A DNA stretch of 64,000 bases from a phage, in the NCBI GenBank assembly GCA_024683775.1, contig GCA_024683775.1_4106.1; one strand, written 5' to 3'. The notes under the pieces were generated by a model, which saw only the letters and a program-made list of their open reading frames with translations, was not told the origin of the DNA and searched no databases. The position numbers and the translations under genes are program-made. Below, in pieces: positions 14,464 to 14,967 of the stretch (the first letter of the stretch is position 1; each line of letters opens with the position of its first letter).

Positions 14464-14967
14464 ATGAAATCTATTATTGCCAATAACGAAATCACCGCAA
14501 AAACTGTTCGTCTAGTTACGGAAGGTAAAAGTGAAGTCATGGCAATCTCTAAAGCACTTGCTTTAGCAGAAAATGAAGGTCTGGATTTGGTGGTTATTGG
14601 AGCAGGTGATGAACCTGCTGTTAAAATCACTAATCTGAACAAATTCAAATACGAATTGAAACAGGCTGAAAAAGCCTCTCTTAAGAAACAGCGTCAAAAC
14701 ACTGTTAGTACTAAAGAGATTCAATTCAACTTCGGGACTCAAGAGCATGATTTGCTTATTAAAGCGAAAAGTGCAGGTAAGTTCCTAGAAGAAGGTAAGC
14801 AAGTACACATTGTAATGAAAACCACAGGTCGCGGAACAAACGCAACTGTTATCCAAAACAACGTTGATGCAATGGAGTCATTCGTTAGTCGTTTGGGTAA
14901 CGTAACGTATGTCCAGAAAGTTGAATTCCAGGGTAAGAAGGTAACCTGTACTGTCAAAGTAAAATAA
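14464..14967 (+). CDS. infC: translation initiation factor IF-3 homologue
   Basis: Both IF3 domains recognisable against E. coli IF3 from memory: [56 protein letters not shown]. Confidence 0.85.

Follow-up and report, generated by a model that had tools for sequence, protein, structure and literature searches.

A full-length homologue of translation initiation factor IF3 encoded by a 121Q/RaK2-like jumbo phage

Introduction

Initiation factor IF3 decides whether the 30S ribosomal subunit accepts a start codon and an initiator tRNA, and it keeps the ribosomal subunits apart; a virus with its own copy of IF3 could dictate how translation starts in its host. A gene of this kind is present in the window analysed here, that is, a stretch of 64,000 nucleotides of phage DNA (GenBank assembly GCA_024683775.1, contig GCA_024683775.1_4106.1). 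Does it encode a genuine and complete IF3, and what would such a factor do during infection?

A phage IF3 gene is, as an element, already known and annotated; it has been in papers since 2017 and has not been overlooked. Indeed, an IF3 gene was mentioned for phages CBB, GAP32, 121Q, PBECO4 and RaK2 by Buttimer et al. 2017 (PMC5259590), IF1 and IF3 were noted in huge phages by Al-Shayeb et al. 2020 (PMC7162821), and IF3 was discussed together with the KTSC protein by Iyer et al. 2021 (PMC7824862). A literature search found no functional study of any phage IF3, and according to the 2025 paper on phage Sharanji the function of the phage IF3 'cannot be definitively stated' (PMC11895373).

Identification of the IF3 gene and of its product

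The product of the coding sequence at 14464..14967 (+ strand) is a phage-encoded homologue of IF3 (infC-like), full-length by sequence and by predicted fold. The open reading frame begins with ATG, consists of 167 intact codons and ends with TAA, directly followed by a second TAA. An in-frame TGA (14431-14433) leaves no in-frame start upstream, and a longer N-terminus is therefore excluded; the N-terminal sequence, MKSxIAN, is common to all relatives. The frame is exactly the 167-aa frame described in an earlier, sequence-only reading, and every peptide string quoted there as resembling IF3 occurs in the translation.

That reading had proposed an IF3 homologue from an alignment by eye and had named a profile search as a check. 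This search bore the proposal out, as both IF3 domain profiles and the infC equivalog model TIGR00168 score above their curated cut-offs, and the two domain matches are significant far beyond chance. The N-terminal domain (aa 7-71; 14482..14676, + strand), also recognized in the model and by structural matches, corresponds to Pfam PF05198 (IF3_N; 57.6 bits, E 1.4e-15, cut-off 26.9), the C-terminal, 30S-binding domain (aa 82-165; 14707..14958, + strand), likewise present in the model, corresponds to Pfam PF00707 (IF3_C; 45.8 bits, E 5.7e-12, cut-off 34.8), and NCBIfam TIGR00168 gives 100 bits for a cut-off of 60. Furthermore, the whole protein (aa 1-167) aligns with positions 1-167 of the 168 of PHROG 9787 ('translation initiation factor'; E 2.8e-66, 223.5 bits), and PDB chains of IF3 are matched at E ~1e-15 (HMMER). 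BLASTP against E. coli IF3, taken from the MG1655 genome, gave 40% identity over aa 7-123; the overall identity to E. coli IF3 in the alignment is 31%.

Between the two domains lies a helical, lysine-rich linker (aa 58-80; 14635..14703, + strand; taken from the model). In bacterial IF3 this linker is basic and about 20 residues long, and the phage linker has this character, with a net charge of +5 vs +6 in E. coli. The distribution of charge over the N-domain, linker and C-domain is -2/+5/+5 in the phage protein vs -2/+6/+4 in E. coli IF3, and the pI of both proteins is 9.54.

Predicted structure

The structural modelling that the sequence-only reading had also suggested was done with AlphaFold2 (33 homologues used; mean pLDDT 83.7). 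The modelled N-domain has four strands (14-19, 22-27, 41-46 and 52-56) and one helix (28-37), followed by the long linker helix (58-80) and by a C-domain with the order beta-alpha-beta-alpha-beta-beta. In a Foldseek search of the PDB, 23 matches were obtained at E <= 0.001, all 23 to bacterial or mitochondrial IF3. The IF3 C-domain fold is present, with a TM of 0.82 and an rmsd of 1.9 A to 1tig, and the N-domain gives a TM of 0.82 to 6o6d and of 0.76 to 1tif. The whole-chain TM is only ~0.48, a value that we put down to flexibility in how the two IF3 domains are oriented.

Distribution of the gene among phages

Escherichia phage BF17 (MW822008, 383 kb), a 121Q/RaK2-like jumbo phage, matches the region at 100% identity; a set of sister phages follows at 97-99.9% and the 121Q/PBECO4 (Asteriusvirus) group at ~85%. 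In BF17 the IF3 gene is labelled 'hypothetical protein' in the GenBank record, and the identical protein of fEgEco12 and WPEC3 (100%) is annotated 'translation initiation factor IF3'. The protein identity is 89% with 121Q/PBECO4, 68% with RaK2 and 52-53% with CBB/GAP32.

By tblastn, IF3 homologues were found in 93 of 50,697 phage records. The strong matches are nearly all in jumbo phages of 320-390 kb with Enterobacterales as hosts, namely Asteriusvirus, RaK2-like Alcyoneusvirus, GAP32-like Mimasvirus, CBB, and Yersinia, Serratia and Erwinia phages. Two records that are really bacterial chromosome inflate the number of IF3 genes attributed to phages: that of Acinetobacter phage MD-2021a (CAKLQH020000014.1), which carries thrS, infC and, further on, rpmI, and that of Pseudomonas phage SC_8_H2H8_2017 (MT121966.1), which carries the end of a threonyl-tRNA-synthetase gene, infC, rplT, pheS and pheT.

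Gene neighbourhood

The IF3 gene lies in a series of genes encoding DHFR, RNase H, a Dda-like helicase, two small genes, IF3, a ClpS-like protein, a KTSC protein, structural proteins and topoisomerase II. The gene for the ClpS-like adaptor (181 aa; 14981..15526, + strand) begins 13 nt past the IF3 stop. Its own match to Pfam ClpS is weak (E 0.014); the GAP32 orthologue (38% identical, E 4e-41) matches Pfam ClpS at 9.4e-11, and the ClpS-like protein of a Vibrio phage matches this Pfam family at 2.4e-18. It is followed by the gene for the KTSC-domain protein (181 aa; 15601..16146, + strand; Pfam PF13619, 6.2e-14), which shares 41% identity with the KTSC protein at the corresponding position in the Vibrio phage. 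As the gap between the IF3 and ClpS-like genes is 13 nt and no terminator-like site was found on the + strand between 11.5 and 18.5 kb, the IF3, ClpS-like and KTSC genes are likely to be co-transcribed.

This three-gene block is kept in all relatives examined, and the IF3 gene occupies the matching genomic position in Asteriusvirus, Alcyoneusvirus, Mimasvirus and the distant Vibrio phage. In the block of the latter, whose IF3 is 38% identical, an inserted gene for ribosomal protein bS21 (Pfam S21, 9e-13) separates the IF3 gene from the ClpS-like gene. A bS21 partner was sought in BF17-like phages, and tblastn with the Vibrio phage bS21 returned that Vibrio phage only. In the unrelated Agrobacterium phage Atu_ph07, the IF3 gene adjoins a gene for a Clp ATPase subunit.

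Selection and origin

The IF3 gene is under strong purifying selection: between BF17 and 121Q its dN/dS is 0.073 (dS 0.78), similar to the values of neighbouring genes. E. coli IF3 (31% identity) is no closer to the phage protein than are the other distant IF3s of the alignment (30-36%), and a profile search of 1.84 billion representatives gave a smooth gradient of scores. Furthermore, the closest bacterial IF3s named in the RaK2 and GAP32 records are from unrelated taxa. The lack of closeness to host IF3, the unrelated best cellular matches and the shared gene order suggest one old acquisition. A recent capture from the host is rejected on the 31-40% identity to E. coli IF3 and on the equal distance of other IF3s. 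An artefact of host DNA is rejected on the surroundings of the gene, which lies within one uninterrupted phage genome with a phage helicase gene on one side and a topoisomerase gene on the other.

Expression signals and predicted escape from autoregulation

The sequence-only reading had placed a consensus promoter upstream of the gene, and this was confirmed: a sigma-70 promoter TTGACA-17 nt-TATAAT (14391..14419, + strand) matches the consensus at 12/12 positions and has an A-rich stretch immediately upstream. Perfect TTGACA-N16-18-TATAAT sites are present seven times in the window, all on the + strand (at 14391, 32589, 46698, 48558, 52823, 52967 and 60462), for an expectation of 0.23 from shuffles. 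Six of them cluster at 32-60 kb among many small unannotated ORFs. This cluster is probably an early region, in agreement with the one described for CBB; among the perfect promoters, that of IF3 alone lies inside the DNA-metabolism block. An element of the form TTGAC...TAnAAT is found at the matching position in 121Q, GAP32 and XbC2. In Vibrio phage 2.275.O, a G+C-rich hairpin with a T-run behind it (GGGACGCATAAGCGTCCTTTTT; ~3905-3935), resembling an intrinsic terminator, directly precedes TATAAT-like boxes and the IF3 gene, which suggests that a new transcription unit begins with IF3 in that phage too. Promoter use and timing are predicted here from the match to the consensus.

The ribosome-binding site had been called good. 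A Shine-Dalgarno core GGAG, read from the sequence, is indeed present (14450..14453, + strand), but 10 nt separate it from the ATG, a spacing at the long end of the phage's own distribution (mode 6-7 nt), and the output of the gene may be modest even with so strong a promoter. The IF3 genes of RaK2, GAP32 and XbC2 also have GGAG with a long spacer (10-13 nt), and this conserved spacing suggests that translation of the phage IF3 is deliberately moderated or regulated.

The start codon of E. coli infC, read from the MG1655 genome, is ATT. The AUU start is the basis of the translational autocontrol of infC, which is abolished by a change from AUU to AUG (Butler et al. 1987, as cited elsewhere). 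The phage IF3 gene starts with ATG in BF17, 121Q, RaK2, GAP32 and XbC2 (and with TTG in the Vibrio phage); with ATG rather than AUU it is therefore predicted to stand outside the feedback loop of host IF3. More generally, neither of the hallmarks of infC at the level of the gene, i.e. the AUU start and the thrS-infC-rpmI-rplT operon, was found, the phage gene having an ATG, its own sigma-70 promoter and phage neighbours.

Conserved residues and diverged loops

The residues were compared with those of E. coli IF3 in a MAFFT alignment of 179 sequences, comprising the protein of the window, 29 clade members with at least 48% identity, 25 intermediates and 124 distant IF3s, E. coli IF3 among the latter. 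Residues by which bacterial IF3 contacts the ribosome and tRNA are identical or conservatively substituted in 29 or more of the 30 clade members; the equivalents of E. coli R25, R66 (as K), K72, Y75, D106, K110, G132, R133 and G167 are retained at this level. In the N-domain and linker, R16 corresponds to R25, K54 to R66 and Y63 to Y75; in the C-domain, D96, K100, G122, R123 and G157 correspond to D106, K110, G132, R133 and G167 and are invariant. In E. coli IF3, R25 and R66 touch the elbow of the initiator tRNA (PMC9723500), D106 and K110 have been linked to ribosome binding, and Y75 is described as critical (PMC3401457).

Two loops have diverged. One is the loop that inspects the start codon, K119-T-T-G-R-G124 (14818..14835, + strand; HMMER and MAFFT alignments), which stands for R129-F-R-G-R-E134 of E. 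coli. T121 pairs with R131 both in the MAFFT alignment and in an independent HMMER alignment. The R131 column holds a non-basic residue (V, A, T, S or Q) in 30/30 clade members and R or K in 105/124 distant IF3s, and the E134 column holds E in none of the 30 clade members vs 95/124 distant IF3s. The phage protein thus has KTTGR in place of an RFRGR motif with a basic residue at 131, which is a functional motif and not a mark of membership in the family; about 15% of the other sampled IF3s are likewise without R or K at 131. The other is the loop bearing Q33, the third contact of E. coli IF3 with the tRNA elbow, which is deleted in 30/30 clade members. R131 contacts the start-codon bases +2, +3 and +4, and the R131P variant allows non-AUG starts, leaderless mRNAs and initiator tRNAs without the three G-C pairs; the IF3s of mycoplasmas (P, F or Y at 131) and of mitochondria (KKGK) are natural variants whose behaviour is relaxed (PMC11775629). 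The literature search brought up no paper that links the RFRGR motif to phages. Given the divergence of the R131/E134 and Q33 loops, the phage IF3 may not behave like the host factor.

The divergence of the KTTGR loop is real and specific to this clade. Convergent loss of R131 in independent phage IF3s was considered and rejected, as those of Atu_ph07 (RFKGRE), LR756504 (VFKGRE) and LR756511 (EYKRRE) are all basic at 131; the loss of R131 is consequently a property of the clade and not a general strategy of phages.

Start codons, leaders and tRNAs of the phage

Features that would go with relaxed proofreading were sought in the phage itself. Of the 102 starts annotated in the corresponding fEgEco12 regions, 99 are ATG, two GTG and one TTG, a count limited by gene callers that permit ATG, GTG and TTG only; unusual start-codon usage was rejected as a support within this limit. 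Behind the seven perfect promoters no leaderless gene was found, six of the seven being followed by leaders of 17-97 nt; downstream of the seventh (60462), the next 250 nt contain no ORF of 40 aa or more.

An unconventional initiator tRNA of the phage was also considered and rejected. The window contains three tRNAs with a CAT anticodon, none of which is initiator-like, as none has three G-C pairs in the anticodon stem or the C1xA72 mismatch. One of them (56263-56352) is a 90-nt tRNA with a CAT (Met/Ile2) anticodon and a long variable arm (type II, Ser/Leu-like; Rfam tRNA 50.3 bits). Another CAT-anticodon sequence (56358-56430) is tRNA-like, with a largely unpaired acceptor stem (A1xC72, C2xC71, T5xT68) and an Rfam match confined to model positions 8-63; it may represent a former tRNA in decay or else an element that merely resembles one. 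A neighbouring tRNA-Ser (56164-56255; ARAGORN) has the anticodon ACT. An A is uncommon at position 34, and it might be edited here by an adenosine deaminase specific for tRNA, such as the one reported for the related phage Sharanji (PMC11895373).

Probable function of the phage IF3 and alternative explanations

The product of the gene is probably a functional IF3 paralogue with both domains; made early, it would act on the 30S subunit in addition to, or in place of, host IF3, and would be exempt from the autoregulation of the host. Transcription by host RNA polymerase would begin as soon as the cell is infected and would probably extend into the ClpS-like and KTSC genes, an early burst of IF3 mRNA driven by this polymerase being the most economical reading. 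Like host IF3, the protein would bind to the platform of the host's 30S subunits; with an identity to host IF3 of only 31-40%, productive binding to the E. coli 30S subunit is a prediction from homology. Once bound, it would keep the subunits apart, speed the formation of the initiation complex and check the start codon and the initiator tRNA, and IF3 activity could in this way be sustained or raised over the long, protein-hungry cycle of a jumbo phage as host gene expression declines. Its synthesis, starting at AUG, would escape the feedback loop of host IF3, and if discrimination is retained the phage protein would also repress the translation of host infC, leading to a progressive replacement of the host factor.

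A rather unlikely alternative, though the foremost of those considered, is an IF3 whose proofreading has been re-tuned (relaxed or otherwise altered), so that KTTGR and the shortened Q33 loop weaken the rejection of suboptimal initiation complexes and start-site selection is shifted toward phage messages. The loop data are what speak for it, with position 131 non-basic and the Q33 loop deleted throughout the clade and E never found at 134, as does the relaxed behaviour of R131P and of the mycoplasma and mitochondrial variants (PMC11775629, PMC3401457); yet no feature of the phage that needs such an IF3 was found among the starts, leaders and CAT-anticodon tRNAs checked, the independent phage IF3s are basic at 131, and the absence of R or K there in about 15% of the other IF3s sampled also weighs against it. 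An extended form of this idea, put forward tentatively and slightly less probable again, is that the specialised IF3 of the clade, made at once from its consensus promoter and free of AUU feedback, would displace host IF3 and reprogramme the acceptance of start sites by the ribosomes of the infected cell. In this form its partners in a conserved module of translation takeover may be the ClpS-like and KTSC proteins, plus bS21 in the Vibrio relative.

An improbable reading is that of a tool for host shut-off, a protein that occupies the IF3 site on the 30S subunit, is defective or biased in the later steps and so inhibits host initiation by competition. The probably early expression from a host-type promoter, the divergence from host IF3 and the ribosome takeover about which authors have speculated for the IF3 gene (PMC11895373, PMC7162821) would suit such a role; however, the phage mRNAs, with ordinary Shine-Dalgarno sequences and ATG starts, would be blocked equally, the residues and domains for normal IF3 action are all conserved, and no element that could confer selectivity is evident. 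Lowest in probability is a captured host gene that no longer has a role, whether a passenger or a decaying copy, or a contamination with host DNA. The records of Acinetobacter phage MD-2021a and Pseudomonas phage SC_8_H2H8_2017 show that IF3 genes filed under phages can be host DNA, but the present gene lies in a contiguous phage genome, with a dN/dS of 0.073, synteny across genera and 31-40% identity to E. coli IF3. This reading is effectively refuted by the data on selection and synteny and is essentially excluded.

In summary, the preferred reading remains that of a working, early-made IF3 paralogue. No new element is reported, and the annotation as IF3 is firmly confirmed as sound by domain tests, fold tests and purifying selection. 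The predicted escape from AUU autoregulation, the loss of R131 and the block of IF3, ClpS-like and KTSC genes were not found in the literature and offer testable hypotheses; the divergence of the loop, the contrast of ATG with AUU and the three-gene block are modest new observations.

Comparison with known systems

E. coli IF3 (infC, P0A707; PDB 8jsg, 2ife) has two domains and a lysine-rich linker, as does the phage IF3. The phage protein differs from it in being without the basic N-terminal extension and without the Q33 loop, and in having KTTGRG for RFRGRE; the gene differs from infC in its start codon (ATG, not ATT) and in lying outside the thrS-infC-rpmI-rplT operon.

In the IF3 of E. coli infC135 (R131P), of mycoplasmas and of mitochondria, position R131 is lost or altered, as it is in the phage clade. 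Unlike these variants of relaxed fidelity, the clade has small or polar residues at 131 (T, S, V, A or Q) and keeps G132-R133; furthermore, the initiator tRNA and uS9 of the phage host are canonical, unlike those of mycoplasmas.

Full-length IF3 homologues are also encoded in the very large phage genomes of Atu_ph07 (gp001), LR756504 and LR756511 (Al-Shayeb et al. 2020), but these are only 35-38% identical to the IF3 of the window and stand in a different genomic context. The nearest known system is the IF-3 of RaK2, 121Q, PBECO4, GAP32 and CBB (PHROG 9787), which is the same gene in the same place, between the block of the Dda helicase and the ClpS-like and KTSC genes; with the IF-3 genes of this group, for example GAP32_313, CBB_318, 121Q gp47 and Sharanji WNN14575.1, there is no material difference.
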